DNA of 61,857 bases from a virus (IMGVR_UViG_3300047462_000177); one strand, 5' to 3'; positions 1 through 61,857 are shown, counted from the stretch's first letter. The notes: generated from the sequence alone by a model not told the origin. Numbers and translations: made by a program.

Positions 1-624
1 TGTTGCTGTTGTTGCTGTTGTTGCTGTTGCCGTGCCCCCGCTGGACACGTTACTTAGCGGGGGTTTGGTTGCAGGAGAATTGTTTTCCGACATTGTGGTC
101 CCACCCGAAGTTACCTCGGTAACAGTGGAACTTGTTGCAGCCCCACCAACCATAGGCGTTGGAGCTGGTACAGGTGCCACAGGAGTAGGTGCTGGCGCGA
201 AGGCAGGAGCCACGGACTGGTTGGCGCTTAGAGAGGCCTGGTTCTGCTTGACCGCAGTATCAATTGCTGTCAGCTCTGCTAGGAGATTCGGATCGATGCC
301 CTGATTGGCGAGATTGGCGAGAGCCTGTGAGAGCTGGGTCTGGAGACTATTTATGTAGTTCACCAGAGAGTTGACCTGCCCTGCACTCACGATGAGATCA
401 GTCTTGAGGTCATTCATCTCTGCTTGGAGCAGTTGTGCTGTTGATTGATTTGACTGTGACATCTCTTCTAGCCTTTCCATGATGATCTTCAACATTTGCC
501 ACGTCATCACAGTTTCGTCTTCACCGCGATTACGTCGCATATCTATTGCCCGCTGATAGATCTGATTAAACCTATTCATGCTTGACATATATGGCATATG
601 ACTTGTGAAGGTAAATGCTGCCAT
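1..624 (-). CDS. hypothetical coiled-coil protein, N-terminal 208 codons of a junction-spanning ORF
   Basis: ATG at 624-622 with GGAAGG about 10 nt upstream. The frame stays open to base 1. It is absent from the supplied track because its stop lies past the window edge. It continues in frame at 61828 once the 29-bp terminal overlap is collapsed. Confidence 0.6.
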   Translation of the reverse strand, partial: MAAFTFTSHMPYMSSMNRFNQIYQRAIDMRRNRGEDETVMTWQMLKIIMERLEEMSQSNQSTAQLLQAEMNDLKTDLIVSAGQVNSLVNYINSLQTQLSQALANLANQGIDPNLLAELTAIDTAVKQNQASLSANQSVAPAFAPAPTPVAPVPAPTPMVGGAATSSTVTEVTSGGTTMSENNSPATKPPLSNVSSGGTATATTATTAT

Positions 625-653
625 CGTTATGTCTCGCCTTCCTAACTTATTGA

Positions 654-788
654 TAGGCCCTGTGGGATTCGAACCCACCTCTATCCTCTTGCAGGATTCC
701 CTTAGTCTTCTCGTTGCCGCTAAACAACTACCTAACTAAAGTCCTATAGCCGCGTACTATAGAAAGCTCACCATCAAGCTTAGGGCCC
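654..788 (-). tRNA. tRNA-like element, 135 nt, non-canonical (interrupted or extended)
   Basis: On the minus strand: 7-bp acceptor stem GGGCCCT/AGGGCCT, D-arm GCTT-GATGGT-GAGC with GG in the loop, and a perfect T-arm GTGGG-TTCGAAT-CCCAC (662-678). About 84 nt lie between the D and T arms instead of about 22. No canonical U33 anticodon loop and no encoded CCA. Confidence 0.45.
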
Positions 789-789
789 T

Positions 790-971
790 CTACGTTAGAT
801 ACATGAAGAGGAGCAGCCTGGGGTCAACAGACTACTCCTCTCACGGATCCCGGAAGGGCTAGGACAGCTGCCGAACAGATCAGCTCTCAGCCACCTCCAG
901 GTTCTAGCCTCCAGTAGGCGTCCAAAGAGGAGCTACCCCTACTGGAGACATCTCAAAACCAAGTGTTAGTG
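790..971 (-). ncRNA. structured non-coding segment between gene 972..1505 and the tRNA-like element
   Basis: The minus strand contains a perfect 10-bp stem CTCCAGTAGG/CCTACTGGAG, a 6-bp GGCTAG/CTAGCC stem and an 8-bp GAGAGGAG/CTCCTCTT stem. No ORF is present. Confidence 0.35.
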
Positions 972-1556: not shown

Positions 1557-1586
1557 ATTATAGCTTAGACAATATAGGACAATCAA
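1557..1586 (-). promoter_or_regulatory. sigma70-type promoter (TTGATT-N18-TATAAT)
   Basis: -10 complement attata at 1557-1562; -35 complement aatcaa at 1581-1586; GGTGACC box upstream. Confidence 0.6.
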
Positions 1587-1812: not shown

Positions 1813-4533
1813 CTATGTCGTATCTGCTTGATCGGGTTTGGGTGTGGGGAGCTCTGTGACGCGGTATGTTTGTTGGCCACTCTGTTCCCCAGCCATTCGG
1901 ACTCCGGCTGTGGACGCTATCAGACTGTAATGTGCCTTGAAATACCTGTCTAGGCGGCGAGCATTAGATAGGATAGGATTACTACGGAACTCACCCATCT
2001 CAACCCAAGCAACTATGTCTAGCATAGTGAAAAGATCCTGAGGACTGCCTTCTCGCCAATTAGTCGTGAACTCGATGATACCCTGAAGCACCCAATCGCT
2101 ATCCGTCGAGGCATTAAGCTGGATCTCCTTCACAGTCTTACGCACGAAGGATTTATCCATACCCACTACTCGAGCTGCAATACCTAAGGCTTGCTCTAGA
2201 TTGGCTAGGCGATGGATAGTATGGAAATTCTCATCCCAGCCACCTTCTTCGACAGGTTTGGCTGCCAACTTGAAGAACCTATGGAGGAATACCAATTGAT
2301 GGGCCATCCACATTTCTCGGCCACCAAACAATTCCATCTTCTTCCGCACCCAATCACTATCGGGGGCCTTGCCTAAGTTGCAAGTCTCGAATATGGTGGA
2401 TCTGGAGAAGAGGTCGGCATTCTGGAAGGGTTGTGTGACAGCTGTGAAACCGAACGTCACATCAACCGGGAATCGAATTAGATCGGCAGTAGTGTAGAGT
2501 TGTCGTACCTCAATCGTGGGATGCGGCTCTGTAGTGAGTCGACAGATCTCGTCTGACATCCTTTGCTTCAGGTCATTCTTGGTGAAGTGGACGTTATCAA
2601 TCACGTGTAGGCCGCCACTATTGGCAAGGGAAGCCTGCCAGTCCTTAATGTCATTAGGCAGATTACGCAGATGAGGACGACCTGTTAGGATATTTAGGCG
2701 CATCTCGTAGAGGCTAGACTTACCACTTCCAGGACCACCTATCATGATCTCCACAGGTAGTTGGATACCTTTCCAACGTTGGAGCCAAGGTGAGATGTAG
2801 TAAAGCAAGGTAGCTAACTCGCGCATACGATGCCCCTGAGGGCTTATCGGGATATCTAGTGAATCTACCTCATCAGGATTCTTATCAGGAAAGGCTGTCT
2901 GGAGGTCCTTCAAATTCCTGCCAATGTTAGTATCCTGGAGGATTTCCCACCACCAGGGTGCTAAAGGCCCTGGCTCCGCATTGATCTGCTCGAAAGCCTC
3001 TAAGACCGTATCTACGTCAAGGGGCTCGACATGATTCTGTTCGAAGAGCAAGCCTAGATCACCATTAGTGCAAAGCTTAATAGGCTCTTCTGTACTTGAT
3101 GAGACAGTGATGAAATTGCTGTCCCCTACTTGGATAGCTATACCATTTGGGTTAGTTGGATCTTCCTTCTCCGTTACTAATGCTCGTACGCGGCGAGGTG
3201 TCACATCCACGATGGGTTCTTCACCTGTAAACTGTGATGCCAACCATGTCAAGACTTTGATGTCACCAGCTCCTAGCCCAAATCTCTGGTACAGTAGGAC
3301 ACCAAAAGGAGTCTCATGCATGAACTGCCCACGACCATTGAGGATAGTAGCAGGCATTAACTTGTATGTCTCCCTGTTGTAGTAGTATGGCTGCCCTGAA
3401 TAAGTATCTCGGAATCGCATCCCATCAGAATCAAGCTCTGCCATGATAACATGGCCAATCTGCTGTGCTAGTTTTCGGTCTTGGAAGTTATTCAGTTGTG
3501 TCCCCAAGAACCCCTTTGAGTTAGGATGTCTAGGGAATTTAGTAGGATCATGGAAGATCTCATGCATCTCCCTGATTATCTGTGACGGCCCATGGATCAT
3601 CAAGTAGTCATCGAGGCCTGTCTTAGTATCCTCATCAGGATGCACTACAGCATCTGCAGGCCTATTGTGGATGTCTGGTAGGATCAACTGTCGGATGCGA
3701 GTTGCGGGCAAACCTAGGTATCGCAATTCATAGCCTAGCATAGTCAATGATCGTTGGATGTCTGCTTTCATTGTCCCGCCAATATCACTATCAAAGATTA
3801 GTACAGGCGTGATATTGAACTGGTTAATGACATCCATCATGTCTTGGAAGCCTTCAGCAAGTGTCATCATTTCAGGCAGTCTGGTATTGCTTCCAGGTAG
3901 CTTGGCTTTGATATCTTGCTTGTTGGAGGTAAGCTCTACTTCCTTTGGCAAGCTTATAGTCCGTGATTTCCAAGAGTCGACACCGCCAAGACCAACAGTA
4001 GGGATTCCCATCTTGGTAGCACAGGCAGCCTTCTTCTCTCCCTCGGTGATCACAAGCATGGCTTGTTGTGGCCACTTTTTCACCCAAGCAATCAGGGTGG
4101 CGTAGAACGCTGGAGGGAAATAGATATGGTTATTGGACTTAGTTGGCTGTCTGTACTTAGAGCCTGACACATTGCTGTTGAAGACCTTAACACGGTAGAA
4201 ATCAATTACAGCTCCTCTTATCGTGTAGTAGGGAATCTTATACCCATCAGCATTTAACGCACCAATAGACCTGCGCATATCAGCATTAAGGAACTGTACA
4301 TCTAGTTCCTCAGGTGTGAGACCACTCTTCGCTAAGTCCGCTATGACTCTTGGATCATATACCTGTTTTGGGTCCTTACCTGATTTTAGGTCAGTAAACA
4401 AGACAACGTTTCCTCCTAGGTCCTCCCCCGAGGGCCCAGAATTAACCGTATTAGGGTCCATTTTAGTTAGCCTCAGACTATAGACTCTTAGTTGCCTAGT
4501 TCCCCACAAAGCTAAGAGTCTGTCAACCCCCAA
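1813..4533 (-). CDS. bifunctional DNA primase / P-loop helicase (Toprim/DUF3854-like N-terminal half plus SF3/D5-like ATPase)
   Basis: ITEGEKKA..GLGGVDSW..IFDSD Toprim-like acidic motifs and a GGPGSGKS Walker A. The likely true start is the ATG at 4461 (MDPNTV) with GAGG upstream. Confidence 0.75.
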   Translation of the reverse strand: MGVDRLLALWGTRQLRVYSLRLTKMDPNTVNSGPSGEDLGGNVVLFTDLKSGKDPKQVYDPRVIADLAKSGLTPEELDVQFLNADMRRSIGALNADGYKIPYYTIRGAVIDFYRVKVFNSNVSGSKYRQPTKSNNHIYFPPAFYATLIAWVKKWPQQAMLVITEGEKKAACATKMGIPTVGLGGVDSWKSRTISLPKEVELTSNKQDIKAKLPGSNTRLPEMMTLAEGFQDMMDVINQFNITPVLIFDSDIGGTMKADIQRSLTMLGYELRYLGLPATRIRQLILPDIHNRPADAVVHPDEDTKTGLDDYLMIHGPSQIIREMHEIFHDPTKFPRHPNSKGFLGTQLNNFQDRKLAQQIGHVIMAELDSDGMRFRDTYSGQPYYYNRETYKLMPATILNGRGQFMHETPFGVLLYQRFGLGAGDIKVLTWLASQFTGEEPIVDVTPRRVRALVTEKEDPTNPNGIAIQVGDSNFITVSSSTEEPIKLCTNGDLGLLFEQNHVEPLDVDTVLEAFEQINAEPGPLAPWWWEILQDTNIGRNLKDLQTAFPDKNPDEVDSLDIPISPQGHRMRELATLLYYISPWLQRWKGIQLPVEIMIGGPGSGKSSLYEMRLNILTGRPHLRNLPNDIKDWQASLANSGGLHVIDNVHFTKNDLKQRMSDEICRLTTEPHPTIEVRQLYTTADLIRFPVDVTFGFTAVTQPFQNADLFSRSTIFETCNLGKAPDSDWVRKKMELFGGREMWMAHQLVFLHRFFKLAAKPVEEGGWDENFHTIHRLANLEQALGIAARVVGMDKSFVRKTVKEIQLNASTDSDWVLQGIIEFTTNWREGSPQDLFTMLDIVAWVEMGEFRSNPILSNARRLDRYFKAHYSLIASTAGVRMAGEQSGQQTYRVTELPTPKPDQADTT

Positions 4534-5367: not shown

Positions 5368-5377
5368 ACATTCTATG

Positions 5378-5407
5378 ATTATACTATAGGCATTCTAGGC
5401 TAATCAA
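5378..5407 (-). promoter_or_regulatory. sigma70-type promoter (TTGATT-N18-TATAAT)
   Basis: attata at 5378-5383 and aatcaa at 5402-5407. The upstream box ATAAAATTCCTC is shared with promoter 54955-54984. Confidence 0.6.
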
Positions 5408-5431
5408 GAGGAATTTTATAGTGCCTCTCGA

Positions 5432-5827
<396 letters not shown>

Positions 5828-6582: not shown

Positions 6583-6636
6583 TGGTCAAAATGAAGACCA
6601 GTCTTAGATTTCTTGTGGTCCAACACGCTGAGGTGA

Positions 6637-6661
6637 GGCAGACGCCTGCGCCGCGACGCGA
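6637..6661. repeat. GC-rich dispersed repeat family 1, copy B
   Basis: ggcagacgcctgcgccgcgacgcga is identical over 25 nt to 6890-6914. Confidence 0.85.
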
Positions 6662-6671
6662 ACATGGGTGG

Positions 6672-7427
6672 TTAGTTATTGTCCTCCTCTTCTGCTTTCA
6701 TGTCTTCTGGTGACATGTATTTGATGTAGGTCTCGCCAAAGGTTCCTTGACCAATGTCCAAGCAACCACCTGCAGCTAAGTCTGCGATCTCATGTGGATG
6801 GATTATGAGCACCTTTGTGGGTGTAGTCTTTTGTTCAGCCTGTCTTTTGGCAAGGATAGTTAAAAAACGGAGCTCTGGGGTGAATGTAGGGCAGACGCCT
6901 GCGCCGCGACGCGACAGGTCGACGCTACGGAGTTGAGTGCGAAGCAATTTAGCTGCATCACTGCCAATACCATCTTTTAGACCTATAGCATAGGCTTGAT
7001 TAACTAGATGCTGCAGCATTAACTGGATATCAAGTTCTGGTAAGGAGCAATTGGCTCCCCTCAGTTGCTGAGCGTAGACAGCTGCATGATCACGGACGTC
7101 GTCGACTTGAGGCGCCTCAGTGATTTTATAGTCCTCACGTTCAGCTACCTCTATGTAGAAGACTGAGTCGTCGTAGACTTGCTCACCATCATCGATCGCC
7201 TCCCAGATGTACTTGGGTTTGGACCCAAAGCCAAATGGCCACATAACCCTTGTTGGGTTCTGGATCTCGTACAGCTTGCAGATGTTATCAATACAATCCG
7301 CGATCTTTTGATGTGACTTGGCAGGCATTATCACAGGTACAGGGAAAGAGACCTCGATCTTGCTGATCTTCCTACGCTCCATTTTCCGTTCGCTGTCGTT
7401 GCTGTTGTCGTTCGAATTCGTGTTCAT
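6672..7427 (-). CDS. hypothetical protein (251 aa from the ATG at 7427)
   Basis: The track ORF extends to 7574, but the upstream gene stops at 7430-7432 and an ATG (MNTNSNDNS) follows 2 nt later. Repeat copy C lies in frame inside this gene. Confidence 0.6.
   Translation of the reverse strand: MNTNSNDNSNDSERKMERRKISKIEVSFPVPVIMPAKSHQKIADCIDNICKLYEIQNPTRVMWPFGFGSKPKYIWEAIDDGEQVYDDSVFYIEVAEREDYKITEAPQVDDVRDHAAVYAQQLRGANCSLPELDIQLMLQHLVNQAYAIGLKDGIGSDAAKLLRTQLRSVDLSRRGAGVCPTFTPELRFLTILAKRQAEQKTTPTKVLIIHPHEIADLAAGGCLDIGQGTFGETYIKYMSPEDMKAEEEDNN
6877..6914. repeat. GC-rich dispersed repeat family 1, copy C (inside coding sequence)
   Basis: 6877-6903 is identical to 58479-58505, and 6890-6914 is identical to 6637-6661. 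Confidence 0.85.
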
Positions 7428-7429
7428 GG

Positions 7430-7660
7430 TTACTTTGCCTTGTCGGTTATGGTGATAGTCACATCCCAGCCTAGACTTGTGCCTATACTGCGTATTCGCT
7501 CGTACCAGCCTGAAGCATTCCCTGTCGAGAGGATCTCTCCAGGGAACTGCTCCTGAGACAGGCACATAGCACACAGCAGATCAAATGCCTGAGCATCTGT
7601 GATCTGCTGCCCCGCCTTTGGCTGTGTTATTTTCTGCCTCTTTGGTTGCCAGAAGGCCAT
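7430..7660 (-). CDS. hypothetical protein
   Basis: 76-aa ORF tightly packed with its neighbours. Confidence 0.5.
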   Translation of the reverse strand: MAFWQPKRQKITQPKAGQQITDAQAFDLLCAMCLSQEQFPGEILSTGNASGWYERIRSIGTSLGWDVTITITDKAK

Positions 7661-7715: not shown

Positions 7716-8282
7716 TTACACGTCTCCTTTCTGGTTAGGATGTATGAGGCTCTTGTCCATTTGATTGGTGGTGTTGTCTCCTTTTGAACGTACATGGAAG
7801 ACTTCACTTAGGAGCTTGTCAACAGTCTCATGCAACTCACTCCTAAGTTTGTCTTTTAGTGAACTGCCTATGTTGATGACGTGTTGCTTCATCTCCCCTT
7901 CGAAGTCTGCAGCAACAAGTTTAGTCATGATATATTCAGCTCGAGTTATGCTGCTGGAGTAAGAAGTGCATGGCTTACCTTGCTTATCTACCTTAGTATT
8001 CCAGTAGTCACCAATGAGGATTTCCAATTCCTTTCGGATGGTCGTAGTCTTACCGACTTGCTGACCAAAACTATCGACGCGGCAAAATTCGCGCTCGAAG
8101 CTCTGTTTGATTGCCTCCTCCACTGCTCTCGTGATCTGTGCGTTAGCGACAGTCTGGAATAGTTTGTCGATTCGTTCATCTACGGCATGCTGTATTCTCT
8201 TCCTCATATCAGCACTATGTATCATCTCGTCGGCGACTTTGCAGATGATGCCTTCTTCGATCGCCTCTTGGCTGAGTTCCAT
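7716..8282 (-). CDS. hypothetical protein
   Basis: 188-aa ORF predicted to be helical. Confidence 0.6.
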   Translation of the reverse strand: MELSQEAIEEGIICKVADEMIHSADMRKRIQHAVDERIDKLFQTVANAQITRAVEEAIKQSFEREFCRVDSFGQQVGKTTTIRKELEILIGDYWNTKVDKQGKPCTSYSSSITRAEYIMTKLVAADFEGEMKQHVINIGSSLKDKLRSELHETVDKLLSEVFHVRSKGDNTTNQMDKSLIHPNQKGDV

Positions 8283-14411: not shown

Positions 14412-14474
14412 CAACAAAGGCGACAAAGTCAACAAAGTCAACAAAGGCGACAAAGTCAACAAAGTCAACAAAGT
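14412..14474. repeat. tandem 9-mer array x7 (caacaaagK / cgacaaagt) with 27-nt higher-order periodicity
   Basis: Read directly. An inverted partial copy cgcctttgttg lies at 14491-14501. Confidence 0.9.
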
Positions 14475-14728
14475 CAATTGCTGACCAAGTCGCCTTTGTT
14501 GTGCTCTGCCAGATGCATTGCAGTCTTACTCAACGAATCAGCTGCCCGACAGAGGAAGTATGGTAAATTGACCTCCGATGACACGAAGGTAGCCATTGCA
14601 CTGTAGTACCGTGACAGAACCGGATAGGCCCACACATCTGGCTCATTCGAAGTAACCTGATGTCTGTTCATAACTCCTGACCCCTGACCCCTGACCCCTG
14701 TTAAATGGTGCAGATCTCTCTTCTGCAT
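14474..14728 (-). CDS. questionable 84-aa ORF, possibly leaderless
   Basis: Its ATG at 14728 lies 6 nt after the -10 of promoter 14735-14764. The N-terminus is encoded by (ctgaccc)x3 at 14677-14700. No similarity was recognised. Confidence 0.3.
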   Translation of the reverse strand: MQKRDLHHLTGVRGQGSGVMNRHQVTSNEPDVWAYPVLSRYYSAMATFVSSEVNLPYFLCRAADSLSKTAMHLAEHNKGDLVSN

Positions 14729-47824: not shown

Positions 47825-48622
47825 TTAGATCTCCAGGATCCAATTACGGATCAGTGAAAGGTTGGCAATAGTTTCAGACGTGATGACACTTGGGACATCT
47901 TCCCACCAGGTCTTACCCCTCTTGCTGTGCGGCCCTAGAGGGTGCCTGTACATAAGTCTCCTTTCTTGTCCTTCTCTGATAGGTGCGGCACTGTCGATAC
48001 CCATCACACCGAGCTTCTTGGCACAGGTGATATCATCCTGGAAGTTGTCTGAGAACCCCAAGAGGTGAATGAATCTTTCATGTGCCCCGAACTCTTTACG
48101 CATGGTAACGTAAAGCCAGTTCAGGAAATCTTTTCGAGTTCCCAGCATGTCGGTGACGAAGCGACCGACGCCCCAGTACTCCACACCGGGCATGTGTGAG
48201 AGCTCCCAGGCACACTCCCTTAACTCTGCCAAGGTGTTGCCTTGAGGTACAGCCATGAACTTTTGACCCCGAGCTAGATAGGGTTCATAGGTGTTGGCAT
48301 ACTCGCAAGCCAGTTCGATTGTCTTGTCCTTGTTACGTATGACGTCAGGTAGGACAATAATCTGAGCCTCTACAATGTTGAGAGCCTTATGCATGACGTC
48401 AGGCTCGACAGGATACCCAAGTTCAATGATCGAGTTATCCATGATGACCAGAGAGTTAGGTGGAAGCAAACCCCTGTAGCTTGTTGGATTCGCTGCCACA
48501 TCATGTGCCAGAAGCAGATGATATGATCCCGCGATACCTACACCCCAAGACTTGAGGGCGCCTAGAACATGGGGAGGGCATACAGGAGCATACCTCGGAA
48601 AGTTAGGAATCTGTATGGACAT
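47825..48622 (-). CDS. dpdA: DpdA-like DNA-guanine transglycosylase (TGT superfamily)
   Basis: Blocks VIMDNSIIELG, AVPQG, IHLLGF and GIDSAAPI, plus synteny with folE-queE-queD-queC. Confidence 0.65.
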   Translation of the reverse strand: MSIQIPNFPRYAPVCPPHVLGALKSWGVGIAGSYHLLLAHDVAANPTSYRGLLPPNSLVIMDNSIIELGYPVEPDVMHKALNIVEAQIIVLPDVIRNKDKTIELACEYANTYEPYLARGQKFMAVPQGNTLAELRECAWELSHMPGVEYWGVGRFVTDMLGTRKDFLNWLYVTMRKEFGAHERFIHLLGFSDNFQDDITCAKKLGVMGIDSAAPIREGQERRLMYRHPLGPHSKRGKTWWEDVPSVITSETIANLSLIRNWILEI

Positions 48623-48920: not shown

Positions 48921-49658
48921 CTACTTGATGCCGGCTACGGCAAAGAATTCCGATCGTGCTGATGGCACATCTCGGAAGAGTCCTCGCACGCAAGATGTGG
49001 AGGTCAGGGTGTCAGGAGTATACACACCTCGACAGGCCATACAGGTATGTAGGCTCTTGATCACTGTTATAGTTCCGTTGGCATCTGTGTAGTCATGTAG
49101 TACGTCTGTTATCTCTTCGCAGAAGATTTCCTGCATGCCTGGACGTGATGTACCAACTGCTTGTACAAGGCGGGCAATCTTGGAGAGGCCGACAACTTTG
49201 CCCCTAGGTATATAACCAACGCAAGCGTGACCCACAGCAGGAAGAAGGTGATGTTCACAGATCATCCTAAAAGGTATGTTGCTTTGTACGATGACGCCTC
49301 CGATGTTCTCAGCCTTAGTTCCCTCGAAGAGGTCTCCTAAGACATCCTTCGGAGTGTAAGGCTTGTTGAACTCAGCTAGGTACTTGAGGAACCTCAGAGG
49401 TGTCTTAGCTTGCGCATCATCAGATTCCCAACCATACATGATGTTCAGCACATGAGCCATGGCATCTACAGCTATCTGCTTCACGCCAGGTACAGGCTCG
49501 TAGTCCGGATTGAGCCCGTCGGCTTCGGCTTCGGCTTCGGCTTCGGCTTCGAGTTCAGTTGGAATGGGAGCTACAGGTGTTGGCTTTCCTTTTTTCCTGT
49601 ATCTGTGGTGACTATTGAAAGCCTGTGCAGGTGTTATCTTACTTGAGGATTTACGCAT
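48921..49658 (-). CDS. folE: GTP cyclohydrolase I
   Basis: ICEHHLLPAVGHACVGYIP..VVGLSKIARLV. The N-terminal extension contains (EA)x5, encoded by (cggctt)x5 at 49520-49549. Confidence 0.85.
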   Translation of the reverse strand: MRKSSSKITPAQAFNSHHRYRKKGKPTPVAPIPTELEAEAEAEAEADGLNPDYEPVPGVKQIAVDAMAHVLNIMYGWESDDAQAKTPLRFLKYLAEFNKPYTPKDVLGDLFEGTKAENIGGVIVQSNIPFRMICEHHLLPAVGHACVGYIPRGKVVGLSKIARLVQAVGTSRPGMQEIFCEEITDVLHDYTDANGTITVIKSLHTCMACRGVYTPDTLTSTSCVRGLFRDVPSARSEFFAVAGIK

Positions 49659-49663
49659 ATCTG

Positions 49664-50431
49664 TTAGACTCCCAACTTGTGACCATACAGCATGGCGTGC
49701 ATTTGCGGAAGGATGGAGACATTAGCAAGGCCATACTTCTGAGCCTCTTCGATCAGCCAGCGATACCTGGTAAGGATCTTGCTAGCTAACACATCACTGT
49801 CAGTCTCGCCGTTATTCTGTGTACCTACTGACAGGAAGAAGTTGACCCTAGGATAGTCAGCATGTAGTTGAGTTGCCCACTCAAGATCTTCAAGATCCAT
49901 TATCACCACCTTGAGGCTAATGCGAGGGGGTGCAATGAGAGATGAGTAGGCTGAGAGCATGTCGCGGTCAAGTTTCTCAGCCATGCCACTGCTTGGTGGC
50001 TTGGGAGAGACTGTGACACTATCGCAGTTGATAAGCCACTGCTTGAAGAACTGCCCCTGTGTCTCGATGGCTACCCGAAAGCCCTCATAGTGAAGTCTAT
50101 CGATCAGCGGTGAGAGCTCATACATCACAGGATCACCACCAGAGATAGTTACCCACTTGGCTCCAGTGTGGGGGCTTCCAAGTTGCAAGAGGGCATCCGT
50201 GATCTGAGTAACTGCTAGGCGCTTGGCGTTCTTCTTCACCTCTTCAGGGAGGACTGCGTGGAGGCTGTCACACCAGTCACACCTGTACCCGCATCCTCCC
50301 AGACGTAGGAAATGGGTAACACGGCCTATCATTGCTCCCTCACCCTGAATAACAGGACCAAATATCTCAATGACAGGCAGCCGTTTGTCTTCGGCTATGT
50401 ACTCGTAAGATACTTTAGCATCGGTAGTCAT
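49664..50431 (-). CDS. queE: 7-carboxy-7-deazaguanine synthase (radical SAM)
   Basis: VIQGEGAMIGRVTHFLRLGGCGYRCDWCDS. Confidence 0.85.
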   Translation of the reverse strand: MTTDAKVSYEYIAEDKRLPVIEIFGPVIQGEGAMIGRVTHFLRLGGCGYRCDWCDSLHAVLPEEVKKNAKRLAVTQITDALLQLGSPHTGAKWVTISGGDPVMYELSPLIDRLHYEGFRVAIETQGQFFKQWLINCDSVTVSPKPPSSGMAEKLDRDMLSAYSSLIAPPRISLKVVIMDLEDLEWATQLHADYPRVNFFLSVGTQNNGETDSDVLASKILTRYRWLIEEAQKYGLANVSILPQMHAMLYGHKLGV

Positions 50432-50952
50432 TGTGGGTACCTCGCAGAGCAGTTAGGTGTCTCGAAGACCTCGACCTCACTCAGCTCTGCAAGGCCTTGA
50501 CTCAGCTCATGGACTCTATCTACCATCAGCTTAAACCAGAACTCTGCAAGGCGTTCAGCTGTAGGAATGAAAGGCACAACGAGAACCTTTGTCTGATTTC
50601 TGTCGCGGTTTTCGTTTACTAGGCAGTAGATCATGGGTTCCCGCTTCACTGTGTGGATAACCATGTCACGGTACTGTTTAGCTGGTATCATGACATGCAG
50701 TAGTGGATCATCAACCCATACCACAGTTCCATGATCACATAGGTCATCACAGTACTCCATCATGACATGCTTGAGGAAGCCGAAGTCTAGAACCATATCA
50801 GTCTGGAATCCTTCTCTGTGTAGTTCTGATGACTTGCACGTGGCATTGATCGTGTATCGATGTCCATGCCAGTTCCAGCACTTCGAGCCATGTGTAGGCA
50901 CACGATGACCAACATCGATGCCTATTTGTCTCGTAATCGAAAAGCCTCCCAT
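50428..50952 (-). CDS. queD: 6-carboxy-5,6,7,8-tetrahydropterin synthase
   Basis: GHRVPTHGSKCWNWHGHRY (H..C..HGH). Confidence 0.8.
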   Translation of the reverse strand: MGGFSITRQIGIDVGHRVPTHGSKCWNWHGHRYTINATCKSSELHREGFQTDMVLDFGFLKHVMMEYCDDLCDHGTVVWVDDPLLHVMIPAKQYRDMVIHTVKREPMIYCLVNENRDRNQTKVLVVPFIPTAERLAEFWFKLMVDRVHELSQGLAELSEVEVFETPNCSARYPQ

Positions 50953-50979
50953 CGTATCAACCTTTCTCCTCGAATTTGA

Positions 50980-51837
50980 TTAGAATGGTATGGTATCATT
51001 TCCCATGTCTGTGCCGTGATCTGGTTTGAGCCCTCGCTGGACAAAGGCTTTTGGCTCATCAACCATGTAATCTGGGGCTGGTGTTGTATAAGTACCGTGA
51101 AGTGATCCGTGAGACACTAGGAGACCATCTTCATATGTGGTAGGATCCGGTAGTTGCGCTAGCTGGAAGGCTTCTTTGCGAGCACGGCATGTAGGGCAAG
51201 TGCCGCAGTGTTTCTCTTTCCCGTCATAGCAGCTCCACGTTAGATCGTAAGGCAGTCCCAACTTGGAGCCAATCTCGACGATAGACTTCTTCTCCATATG
51301 GGTGAATGGGGTGATGAGCCTCACGCGACGATAGGTGCCGAGGTGGATAGCAGACGCCATGACACCTATGAACTCGGGGGTACAGTCTGGATAGGCATCT
51401 CGAGCTGCATCATCAGCATGGGCGCCGAACCAGATAGAGGCTTTTGCGTTGATCCCCAGCTTATCTTGTTCCATGATCCAGCCCTGTGCAATGCCTGCGA
51501 TTCGTGACAGAAGCTGTCCATTCCTGAAGGGAACGTACGTAGGCGAGATGCCTTCTGGCAACTCAGCATAAGTCGAACTTGGAAGCTTGATACTTGGATC
51601 TGTGAGCATGCTCTTCGGTGGATATGCCATCGAGACTGTCTCATGGCTGACACCGAAGAAGTCACAGAGTTTCTGTGCGAACTCCGTTTCTTTCTTGTGT
51701 CTTTGTCCGTAGTCGACAGAGATGCTCACGACATCATGCCAGATACCCTCTGAATAAGCTTCAGCTCTCGCCATAGCAAGGGCTGTCGAACTATCAACAC
51801 CCCCACTATGTAAAACGAATGACCGGTGCAAATCCAT
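50980..51837 (-). CDS. queC: 7-cyano-7-deazaguanine synthase with a C-terminal extension of about 55 aa
   Basis: VLHSGGVDSSTAL PP-loop and the zinc site CYDGKEKHCGTCPTCRARKEAF. Confidence 0.85.
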   Translation of the reverse strand: MDLHRSFVLHSGGVDSSTALAMARAEAYSEGIWHDVVSISVDYGQRHKKETEFAQKLCDFFGVSHETVSMAYPPKSMLTDPSIKLPSSTYAELPEGISPTYVPFRNGQLLSRIAGIAQGWIMEQDKLGINAKASIWFGAHADDAARDAYPDCTPEFIGVMASAIHLGTYRRVRLITPFTHMEKKSIVEIGSKLGLPYDLTWSCYDGKEKHCGTCPTCRARKEAFQLAQLPDPTTYEDGLLVSHGSLHGTYTTPAPDYMVDEPKAFVQRGLKPDHGTDMGNDTIPF

Positions 51838-51881
51838 TACCTTCTCCTTTTCCTTCTCTGGGTGTGAAGCCTGAAGTCGAA

Positions 51882-51931
51882 CCTAACCTAACCTAACCTA
51901 ACCTAACCTAACCTAAGCTAACCTAACCTAG
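51882..51931. repeat. pentanucleotide array (cctaa)x10, which reads (TTAGG)n on the coding strand
   Basis: Lies in the 222-nt gap between the DUF669 SSB stop and the queC start. Unit 8 is gctaa and unit 10 is cctag. Confidence 0.9.
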
Positions 51932-52059
51932 ATGTGCAGGGCATTGTGCTATAGCCCACAGTTGGCTTGCTGTCCTTGGTTCCTGCCGCGGGAATTGTGT
52001 CTTTCCTCAGAATGCCTCACTGAGCCGCGATAAACACCTAAGTTCTACTGCTGGGTTGG

Positions 52060-54931: not shown

Positions 54932-54954
54932 AGGGTGGCTCTCACTATCTATAG

Positions 54955-54984
54955 ATTATACTATAGGTATTAGAGGTCAATCAA
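54955..54984 (-). promoter_or_regulatory. sigma70-type promoter (TTGATT-N18-TATAAT)
   Basis: attata at 54955-54960 and aatcaa at 54979-54984. A 20-bp AT-rich palindrome acctaaaaatatttttaggt lies at 55001-55020, flanked by GGTCACC direct repeats. Confidence 0.6.
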
Positions 54985-55036
54985 GAGGAATTTTATGGTC
55001 ACCTAAAAATATTTTTAGGTCACCATTACTTCACCG

Positions 55037-58469: not shown

Positions 58470-58629
58470 TCCCGCATCGGGGTGAATGTAGGGCAGACGC
58501 CTGCGATGCACCGCGAGACTTGTGGTAGCCATAGTAGGTACCTACTCCAAAGCCCCAGGCAAAGAATATGAGGAAGAGAGTTGTCTGTGCCCAGAACTTA
58601 GGCGTGTTGATGTCAGCGAAGATGCTCAT
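58441..58629 (-). CDS. small membrane protein whose C-terminal tail is encoded by repeat copy D
   Basis: TM segment TTLFLIFFAWGFGVGTYYGY. Confidence 0.4.
   Translation of the reverse strand: MSIFADINTPKFWAQTTLFLIFFAWGFGVGTYYGYHKSRGASQASALHSPRCGNEHEDYGCD
58479..58518. repeat. GC-rich dispersed repeat family 1, copy D
   Basis: 58492-58518 is identical to 1646-1672, and 58479-58505 is identical to 6877-6903. Confidence 0.85.
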
Positions 58630-61489: not shown

Positions 61490-61540
61490 CCTCCACCTTA
61501 GCTACAGTCTAGTGTAGTCTGCTAGCCCTATCTAGTCTAG

Positions 61541-61566
61541 TTCCTATTACCCCCGTAATAGGAACC
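61541..61566. other. perfect 11-bp hairpin (gttcctattac-cccc-gtaataggaac) in a 285-nt non-coding gap
   Basis: Read directly. A tatcaggt x2.7 tandem repeat lies at 61689-61710 in the same gap. Confidence 0.5.
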
Positions 61567-61774
61567 GTTCGCACACGTAGTCGCTATCGGAGTCAACGCT
61601 ACATGACTTAAGTCTACAAACACCACGGCCCTACAGTGCTGTCCCTTGGTACCCACGACTCCGTGCAGATATCCAAGGTAATGCAGACTATCAGGTTATC
61701 AGGTTATCACCTCGCGGAGTAACACACCTGTCAGTATGCCCTCAGCTGCGCCAGTAACCCGATTCGTGAAACTG

Positions 61775-61828
61775 CTAGGTAGCTGTTGAGGCTCCGCCCG
61801 ATGTTGTCGGAGCTGCAACTGTTGCTAC
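61775..61828 (-). CDS. C-terminal 17 codons plus TAG stop of the junction-spanning ORF
   Basis: Hand translation from 61828 downward gives VATVAAPTTSGGASTAT then TAG (complement of cta at 61775-61777), in frame with 1..624. Confidence 0.5.
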   Translation of the reverse strand, partial: VATVAAPTTSGGASTAT

Positions 61829-61857
61829 TGTTGCTGTTGTTGCTGTTGTTGCTGTTG
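61829..61857. repeat. 29-nt terminal overlap identical to bases 1-29 (circular closure or assembly redundancy)
   Basis: tgttgctgttgttgctgttgttgctgttg is present at both ends. It is itself a 9-mer x3 tandem repeat. Confidence 0.8.

Follow-up and report, generated by a model that had tools for sequence, protein, structure and literature searches.

A phage-encoded tRNA-like element that carries three extra hairpins within a tRNA shell

What is a phage gene that keeps the acceptor, D and T arms of a tRNA and lacks an arm to carry an anticodon? This question is raised by an element on the minus strand of IMGVR_UViG_3300047462_000177, a 61,857-nt circular phage contig that is referred to below as the window. 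The original prediction described a 135-nt element with perfect acceptor, D and T arms around an 84-nt multi-hairpin core, and suggested an intron- or insertion-interrupted tRNA, a tRNA-derived decoy or a tRNA-like punctuation signal. Its interpretation finds partial support, and the underlying observation is confirmed: the locus contains a tRNA-like shell with three extra hairpins. This is a specific and previously undescribed architecture among phage tRNA-like RNAs and tRNA-like processing signals.

To describe the element, we folded it without constraints. The minimum free energy (MFE) fold was exactly the six-way junction of the prediction, with every helix at the predicted position (Table 1), and had a free energy of −52.1 kcal/mol (z = −3.95; 1 of 200 shuffled sequences folded as well). 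The junction persisted within the fold of the entire 347-nt intergenic region (625-971, minus strand; −147.3 kcal/mol, z −5.6). The acceptor stem pairs GGGCCCU with AGGGCCU (782-788/655-661) in 7 bp that include G1.U72, and the discriminator is followed by UCA, such that CCA is not encoded. The first of the inserted hairpins, H1 (UUCUAUAG-UACGCGG-CUAUAGGA), starts 1 nt past the D stem, at the place of an anticodon arm; it is longer than such an arm and has A33 rather than U33. Its loop holds the palindrome CGCG. The second hairpin, H2, has the sequence CUUUAGUU-AGGUA-GUUGUU-UAGC-GGCAAC-GAGAA-GACUAAGG, in which the internal loop AGGUA/GAGAA (729-733/708-712) is flanked by G-C and U.G pairs; we take this loop to be like one half of the loop E motif of bacterial 5S rRNA. 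The third, H3, is preceded by GA and followed by AGAG. All three are mismatch-free over 8-9, 14 and 5 bp, respectively, which is not expected from random decay.

The element possesses the hallmarks of a tRNA: its acceptor and T stems have 7 and 5 bp, the latter with G53-C61, its T loop fits UUCRA and its D loop contains GG. The composite of a T arm, an adjoining acceptor stem paired at 7/7 positions and a GG-bearing D arm occurred once in the window. In dinucleotide shuffles of the window, the same composite was found 7 times per 200, or ∼0.035 per genome, even when the looser T loop TTCRANN was allowed. Moreover, only three T arms with G53-C61 were present in 577 kb of related, tRNA-free phage DNA.

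Despite these hallmarks, the element was not recognized as a tRNA. ARAGORN called no tRNA gene in the window, and the element, located between protein genes, is the sole tRNA-type gene of the genome. At the gathering score, Rfam returned no match for it. The Rfam tRNA model RF00005 scored 21.9 bits, as compared with a cut-off of 29, and did so only in an alternative register, 654-745, that takes AGGACUU, inside H1 and H2, as the 5′ acceptor strand. A standard anticodon arm, with a 5-bp stem and a 7-nt loop containing U33, is absent: H1 has 8-9 bp and A33, and H3 has a 5-nt loop. The prediction had stated as much, and ARAGORN in its default, intron and tmRNA (transfer-messenger RNA) modes and Rfam were all negative. 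Because there is no anticodon arm, the element cannot read a codon.

The scores also bear on the proposal of an interrupted tRNA. The part of that proposal that concerns an insertion or replacement fits the element. The part that concerns an intron does not: the intron models of ARAGORN found no gene at default thresholds, Rfam yielded no intron family at E<=10, and no half-stems flanking a removable segment re-formed a 5-bp anticodon stem with a U33 loop. In-silico removal of internal segments did yield ARAGORN-accepted tRNAs that start at G788, as a functional decoding tRNA with an intron or an oversized variable region would. These solutions conflicted with one another (Leu-CAA, Ala-CGC, Thr-AGU, Cys and others), and none had U33. 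Further, group I and group II introns are longer than 84 nt. We therefore rejected an intron-containing tRNA, there being no intron-aware call, no consistent deletion and no known intron type, and consider a decoding tRNA of this kind scarcely credible. Two other candidates were also rejected: a tmRNA, for which ARAGORN was negative even at 80% thresholds and Rfam was negative, and a known ribozyme, riboswitch or small RNA, for which Rfam gave nothing meaningful at E<=10.

To investigate the origin of the shell, we scanned GTDB (one genome per species) for the 21-nt string of the T arm and acceptor, GGGTTCGAATCCCACAGGGCC. The string matched 33 bacterial or archaeal sites in 32 loci. ARAGORN called tRNA(CAT) at 13 of these, in Gemmatimonadales, Opitutae/Verrucomicrobia and Solimonas, and tRNA-Lys at another 13, mostly in Dehalococcoidia/Chloroflexota; one site had an odd call and six had none. 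The tRNA genes that share the T arm and 3′ acceptor strand of the element nearly all open with GGGCC(C/T)TTAGCT (GGGCCCTTAGCTCAG) and follow the pattern GGGCC(C/T)TTAGCTCAG...GGTTAGAGCA. One of them is the tRNA(CAU) of a Gemmatimonadales metagenome-assembled genome (locus L124, 4008-4083; GGGCCCTTAGCTCAGCGGTTAGAGCACGGGACTCATAATCCTTTGGTCGTGGGTTCGAATCCCACAGGGCCTA). Over the last 25 nt, this tRNA and the element are identical (25/25), including the U72 partner of G1 and A73; both open with the same seven nucleotides, GGGCCCU, and neither encodes CCA. The D arms have drifted (AAGCUUGAUGGUGAGCU in the element versus UAGCUCAGCGGUUAGAGCA in L124). When the arm was compared by eye with GGGCCCTTAGCTCAGCGGTTAGAGCA of L124, U8, A14 and A21 were changed, although the D stem of the element is still paired, via U.G. 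The D-arm framework AGCU..GGU..AGC of these bacterial genes, which encode tRNA(CAU) of the elongator Met or Ile2 type and tRNA-Lys(UUU), is similar. Locus L130 contains a phage tRNA(CAU) with this type of acceptor.

Because the T arm and acceptor match bacterial tRNA(CAU) and tRNA-Lys, with 25/25 nt in L124, the shell is tRNA-derived; what the prediction had deduced from shape is now backed by homology. The element is best described as a CAU/Lys-family tRNA whose anticodon arm and variable loop (positions 27-48, ∼22 nt) have given way to a three-hairpin module of 84 nt. In addition to this replacement, the element differs from the L124-type tRNAs in its shorter D loop and its score below the tRNA threshold. 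The parent may have been either an elongator tRNA-Met or a tRNA-Ile2, and it resembles ileX of E. coli.

The extent of the identity raises the possibility that the locus is a DNA integration site of the attP type, holding the 3′ part of a host tRNA gene, and not an RNA gene. The block shared with bacterial tRNAs spans exactly the T arm to the 3′ end, amounting to 25 nt in L124 and 21/21 nt at the 33 sites, and att cores in tRNA genes are typically of this size and position. Lone 3′ halves of this tRNA family, of the kind left by integrated elements, also occur at four of the six sites that had no ARAGORN call. However, no integrase or recombinase was detected among the window open reading frames (ORFs) scanned against Pfam and PHROGs, a scan that covered all but ORFs below ∼130 aa and a few of up to ∼200 aa. 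No window protein matched the 32 bacterial loci, and no related prophage was found there. Moreover, an attP site needs neither the complementary 5′ acceptor strand nor a correctly spaced D arm, whose chance occurrence is the ∼0.035 per genome given above. We consider this explanation very improbable. The four bacterial loci themselves (L107, L110, L114 and L123) contain only the 3′ half of a tRNA(CAU) or tRNA-Lys, from the anticodon loop on, with unrelated sequence before it; these halves look like att-site duplicates left by integrated elements.

We then considered the transcription context. The element shares its strand with both flanking genes, encoding proteins of 177 and 225 aa, and forms a tRNA-like fold between coding regions, which is the layout of punctuation signals and t-elements. 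It ends 11 nt ahead of the ribosome-binding site (RBS) of the downstream gene, whose ATG at 624 lies 29 nt past A654. The promoter-like site upstream of the 177-aa gene belongs to one of three copies of a 63-nt repeat (1556-1618, 5377-5439 and 54954-55016), each with a sigma-70-like TTGATT-18-TATAAT on the minus strand; these copies are probably early or middle promoters of the phage. No terminator-like or promoter-like site was found between the 177-aa and 225-aa genes. Since these genes lie on the same strand without such a site between them, the element is most likely co-transcribed with both. The punctuation suggested in the prediction is plausible in this setting.

Overall, we tentatively favor the reading that the element is a tRNA-derived chimera that would be excised by RNase P and RNase Z as a stable RNA, splitting the operon mRNA in the process; we assign this joint reading a probability of about 0.45. 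Starting at the promoter-like site (1586-1557), the transcript would run through the 177-aa gene and the three long hairpins into the element, and then via a leader of 29 nt into the 225-aa gene. What RNase P, RNase Z and the CCA-adding enzyme read in a tRNA is the acceptor/T stack, the T loop and the GG of the D loop. The shell retains these parts, with a stack of 12 bp, the pair G53-C61, the loop UUCGAAU and the GG. In the proposed mechanism, the acceptor/T-arm minihelix and the elbow between the GG and the T loop would make the element a substrate of host RNase P, with cleavage ahead of G788. The end after A654 would be generated by RNase Z or exonucleases, and CCA might then be added to it. 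The product would be a nuclease-resistant RNA of ∼135 nt that displays three hairpins on a tRNA chassis. Excision would also split the polycistronic mRNA: the three protective hairpins would close the upstream half, plausibly as a barrier at its 3′ end, and a short leader of 29 nt would be left to the downstream ORF as its own.

Table 1. Positions of the tRNA-like element, its parts and the adjoining features in the window.
Feature	Coordinates	Strand	Remarks
Complete tRNA-like element, 135 nt	654..788	-	G788 = +1, A654 = discriminator; MFE fold, single motif-scan match
Acceptor stem, 5′ strand GGGCCCU	782..788	-	Same 7 nt open tRNA(CAU)/tRNA-Lys genes
D arm AGCUU-GAUGGU-GAGCU, 4-5 bp stem, 6-nt loop with GG	765..780	-	
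Hairpin H1, 8-9 bp, loop UACGCGG or ACGCG	742..764	-	MFE fold
Hairpin H2, 8 bp, symmetric 5x5 purine-rich internal loop, 6 bp, UAGC tetraloop	700..741	-	MFE fold
Hairpin H3, AUCCU-GCAAG-AGGAU (5-nt loop)	683..697	-	MFE fold
Variable-loop-like linker AGAG, 4 nt	679..682	-	
T arm GUGGG-UUCGAAU-CCCAC, with G53-C61	662-678	-	
T arm, acceptor 3′ strand (655-661) and A654	654..678	-	25/25 identical to Gemmatimonadales tRNA(CAU)
Three long hairpins (907-949, 846-904, 802-845)	802..949	-	Past the upstream gene's stop codon, ahead of the element
Upstream gene, 177 aa	972..1505	-	C-terminal domain conserved in related phages
Promoter-like site TTGATT-18-TATAAT upstream of the 177-aa gene	1557..1586	-	In one of three copies of a 63-nt repeat
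RBS AGGAAGG (637-643) and first 208 codons (ATG 624) of the downstream 225-aa gene	1..643	-	Lineage-specific gene
Last codons and stop of the 225-aa gene	61775..61828	-	Past the circular junction

To search for relatives of the element, we built a covariance model, R1, from it. R1 scored 168 bits at the element only and found nothing comparable over 637 kb of related phage loci. With the filters off, ordinary tRNAs scored ∼6-21 bits and an orphan tRNA-like element in locus L095 scored 23 bits. Four pattern scans of IMG/VR, which looked for a T arm with an acceptor, for D and T loops a long gap apart, for the H2 loop motif ahead of a T loop, and for an acceptor with a short D arm, returned nothing, or only ordinary tRNAs by chance, and an IMG/VR scan with the single primase protein of the phage gave no match. 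A metagenome scan with a primase alignment recovered 79 related loci, none of which contained the element according to the motif scan, ARAGORN or R1. A second copy of the core was not found in the 0.93 Mb examined. Loci L001 and L002 are identical copies of the window from other samples.

The closest relative that covers the spot is L097, whose primase is 76% identical. At its contig end, a homologue of the 225-aa gene begins (9/18 identities, E 4e-6 in a pairwise comparison). The intergenic region of L097 is 204 nt long and has three hairpin structures and no T arm; at the place of the element, just ahead of the RBS, is a different branched hairpin. L069 is more distantly related (35% primase identity). 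Here, two hairpins follow the orthologue of the 177-aa gene; next come an 85-nt tRNA-like element (8050-8133) that scores a sub-threshold 24.7 bits to tRNA-Sec and has the loop CGUGCAA without U33, and a genuine tRNA-Thr(GGU) (8197-8266, 39.1 bits). The latter precedes a hairpin and U-run that we read as a terminator. Because L069 has both a true tRNA-Thr and an odd tRNA-like element there, tRNA-type genes recur at this slot. The L069 oddity resembles the window element in its slot, its acceptor stem and T arm, its anticodon-like loop without U33 and its score below Rfam thresholds; it differs in its length, its tRNA-Sec-like layout and the real tRNA next to it, and has no sequence in common with the element.

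Several of these results weigh against the excised chimera. The residues U8, A14, A21 and Y48 of the tertiary core of real tRNAs are not kept, and their loss could weaken recognition by the processing enzymes. No homologue was found in the 637 kb of related loci, the four IMG/VR pattern scans or the annotated phage collection, and none of the helices thus has covariation behind it. The three independent assemblies that contain the element are identical in it and hence uninformative on selection. Finally, L097 keeps the homologue of the downstream gene and has no tRNA-like element, and the element is therefore lineage-specific and dispensable for the phage group.

The same findings favor a serious rival, in which the locus is a decaying tRNA gene. 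A former gene of the tRNA(CAU) type at a tRNA-prone slot would have had its anticodon region destroyed by rearrangement or insertion, leaving a functionless recent relic that RNase P might cut by accident. The absence from L097, the restriction to one lineage with no covariation available, and the lost core residues are as expected from such a relic. Further, the weaker 654-745 register (21.9 bits) suggests a scrambled or duplicated 5′ half of a tRNA, and GGGA|AUCCU is a possible vestige, weak and recognized by eye, of the anticodon stem of L124. By contrast, the T arm and both acceptor strands are perfect, whereas the pairing of the shell would be expected to erode as fast as the core, and the 84-nt replacement consists of three mismatch-free hairpins in a fold with a z of −3.95. 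On balance, we judge the relic unlikely.

The position of the element immediately ahead of the 225-aa gene is also consistent with a cis-acting structure of the 5′ untranslated region that stabilizes the message or modulates its translation, its likeness to tRNA being inherited and irrelevant. The distances of 29 nt to the ATG and 11 nt to the RBS, and the different branched hairpin at the same place before the RBS in L097, agree with such a role. It leaves unexplained, however, the retention of the T-loop consensus, G53-C61, the D-loop GG and the 7-bp acceptor stem, and we think that it has little chance of being correct.

A decoy had also been proposed. In its general form, a processed and possibly CCA-tailed RNA would titrate a factor of the host or of a defence system that reads the acceptor end, T arm or elbow, such as a toxin that modifies or cuts tRNA 3′ ends or a tRNA-binding enzyme. 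The shell is intact and the anticodon missing, the slot is a variable, accessory one next to a lineage-specific gene, and the tRNA clusters of phages are rich in unrecognized tRNA-like elements (see below). Nevertheless, the proposal is purely inferred and comes without a candidate partner, and the element is not conserved; we regard it as improbable. A decoy against anticodon nucleases, as specifically suggested, is unlikely, since the anticodon loop is the very part that is missing.

We compared the element with known systems of similar layout. The nearest natural analogue is RNAC of phage T4 (species 1 RNA, rnaC), a small stable RNA of 139 nt from the tRNA region of this phage. Both are phage-encoded and of ∼135-140 nt, and in both an acceptor-like 3′ strand comes immediately after a perfect T arm (CCGGG-UUCGAAU-CCCGG in RNAC). 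RNAC is strongly structured (z −4.6), with two non-tRNA hairpins as its body; the element is likewise strongly structured, with a non-tRNA body. The window element thus has the RNAC-type layout, a phage RNA of ∼120-140 nt whose non-tRNA body is enclosed by a T arm and an acceptor-like closing stem, and this likeness is one of architecture only: there is no homology beyond the T loop, and R1 scored RNAC at 11.7 bits, inside the range of ordinary tRNAs. Further, the acceptor stem of RNAC is imperfect, with two U.U, and RNAC has no D arm, whereas the element has both intact. RNAC is located in a tRNA cluster and the element between protein genes. RNAC has yet to be assigned a role (PMC3014915, PMC9697503).

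The best model of a way in which the element could work is the engineered tRNA scaffold. In such scaffolds, the acceptor stem, T arm and D arm are kept and the anticodon stem-loop is the insertion site (PMC3753655). Cellular factors of E. coli recognize them, and the success of stable-RNA-based production is attributed to precise processing, modification and escape from degradative 3′ polyadenylation, the natural stable RNAs that underlie the scaffold being precisely processed and spared such polyadenylation (PMC3753655). The element follows this Ponchon-Dardel layout, with a structured insert in place of the anticodon stem-loop. It differs in that the scaffold is artificial, keeps the variable loop and carries a single-hairpin insert closed by the anticodon stem, whereas three hairpins of the element emanate from a central junction. 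As to punctuation, tRNA-like folds without decoding function lie between or next to coding regions where cuts by RNase P and RNase Z would make mRNA ends (PMC1920247). The t-elements of plant mitochondria, tRNA punctuation and mascRNA are organellar or eukaryotic and their processing has been shown experimentally, whereas that of the element is predicted.

To gauge how common such elements are, we counted orphan T arms, defined as perfect T arms outside an ARAGORN-called tRNA, in the few phage tRNA clusters that had been fetched by chance. There were seven in L013, ten in L095, three in L130, two in L011 and one in T4 (rnaC), as compared with the three in the 577 kb of phage DNA free of tRNAs. 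In several cases, an acceptor stem of 6-7 bp closes the structure at 93-128 nt. Examples of orphan T arms are located at 7429-7549 (-) in L013, 5006-5126 (-) and 5194-5290 (-) in L095, 2395-2522 (+) in L011, 4782-4875 (+) in L130 and 2909-3047 (-) in L131 (T4). The L013 element has the D-loop string GAUGGUGAGC in common with the window element and is not recognized by Rfam. Expanded tRNA-like genes may be a wider, uncatalogued phenomenon, and the class is possibly under-counted, because tRNA finders and Rfam miss its members and orphan T arms are frequent in clusters. A bolder version of the favored reading, which we consider rather unlikely, is that the element is a natural tRNA scaffold whose tRNA(CAU)-type chassis would recruit host RNase P, RNase Z and the CCA-adding enzyme, such that the 84-nt three-hairpin module would be excised and stabilized as a trans-acting effector RNA, for example a protein sponge or an anti-defence RNA, and that it belongs to a wider, uncatalogued phage class including T4 RNAC and the orphan T arms.

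The contig is circular, since its ends are identical over 29 nt (1-29 and 61829-61857), and the gene starting at ATG 624 on the minus strand therefore runs on to a stop at 61775-61777. The overlap sits in a 9-nt repeat (ACAGCAACA), the translation of which is a Thr/Ala-rich tail. According to Pfam and PHROGs scans, the plus strand encodes a portal, a head-tail connector and baseplate proteins, and the minus strand is a module of replication and nucleotide metabolism. Proteins of this module are PolA fused to a UDG domain, a SNF2 helicase, a DUF3854 primase/helicase, a DNA ligase, a PD-(D/E)XK nuclease, an AAA_24 protein and a RuvC-like resolvase. FolE, a QueE-like radical SAM protein, QueD (PTPS) and QueC are encoded in a row at 48921-51837 (-), adjoining PolA-UDG, a set that corresponds to the 7-deazaguanine (preQ0) pathway and suggests that the phage DNA is modified. 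The adjoining 265-aa ORF at 47825-48622 had no family match. A tie between the element and the 7-deazaguanine genes was rejected, as no UGU-type loop was seen by eye.

No match to the region or to 20 kb of the window was found by blastn against 50,697 annotated phage records, and among isolates a related primase (35.6% identity) was present in just two, both of them Brevundimonas phages. We presume, from their sample identifiers, that several of the metagenomes holding relatives are soil or rhizosphere sets. The primase homologues P0030, P0060, P0068, P0069 and P0076 are 250-400 aa longer and carry PF14528. We take PF14528 to be a LAGLIDADG-type domain, which would suggest intein insertions. 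Repeats in the window include a GC-rich intergenic motif in four copies (GGCAGACGCCTGCG..CGCGA; 1637-1670, 6628-6661, 6881-6914 and 58483-58516) and tandem arrays of a 9-nt unit, CAACAAAGK (14412-14483, ∼8 copies), and a 5-nt unit, AACCT (51880-51934, ∼11 copies).

Comparison of gene order places the element in an insertion relative to other phages. The neighbors of the element are the gene of the DNA-binding-like 177-aa protein, an orphan gene and the gene of the RuvC-like resolvase. In the 64-kb locus L004 and in Brevundimonas phage StAshley, the order is primase, small gene and RuvC/RNase-H-like gene. The small gene encodes a C-terminal domain like that of the 177-aa protein (57% identity over 60 aa), the RuvC/RNase-H-like gene has 59% identity with that of the window, and the two are ∼94 nt apart. 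The window has ∼1.3 kb extra between them, consisting of the 347-nt structured region with the three long hairpins and the element, the 225-aa gene and a 287-nt non-coding stretch after it (61490-61776, minus strand). The latter is itself structured (−103 kcal/mol, z −3.15) and had no Rfam match. In database searches, the 225-aa protein matched only itself, and the 177-aa protein had one partial match.

The significance of the element depends on which reading is correct. If it is merely a broken tRNA gene, it is of minor interest. Should the proposed processing take place, the element would count as the natural equivalent of engineered tRNA scaffolds and as a second, independent example beside T4 RNAC. 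The virus would then produce and shield an unrelated structured RNA by means of borrowed tRNA maturation enzymes, and in doing so would also cut its own operon mRNA.

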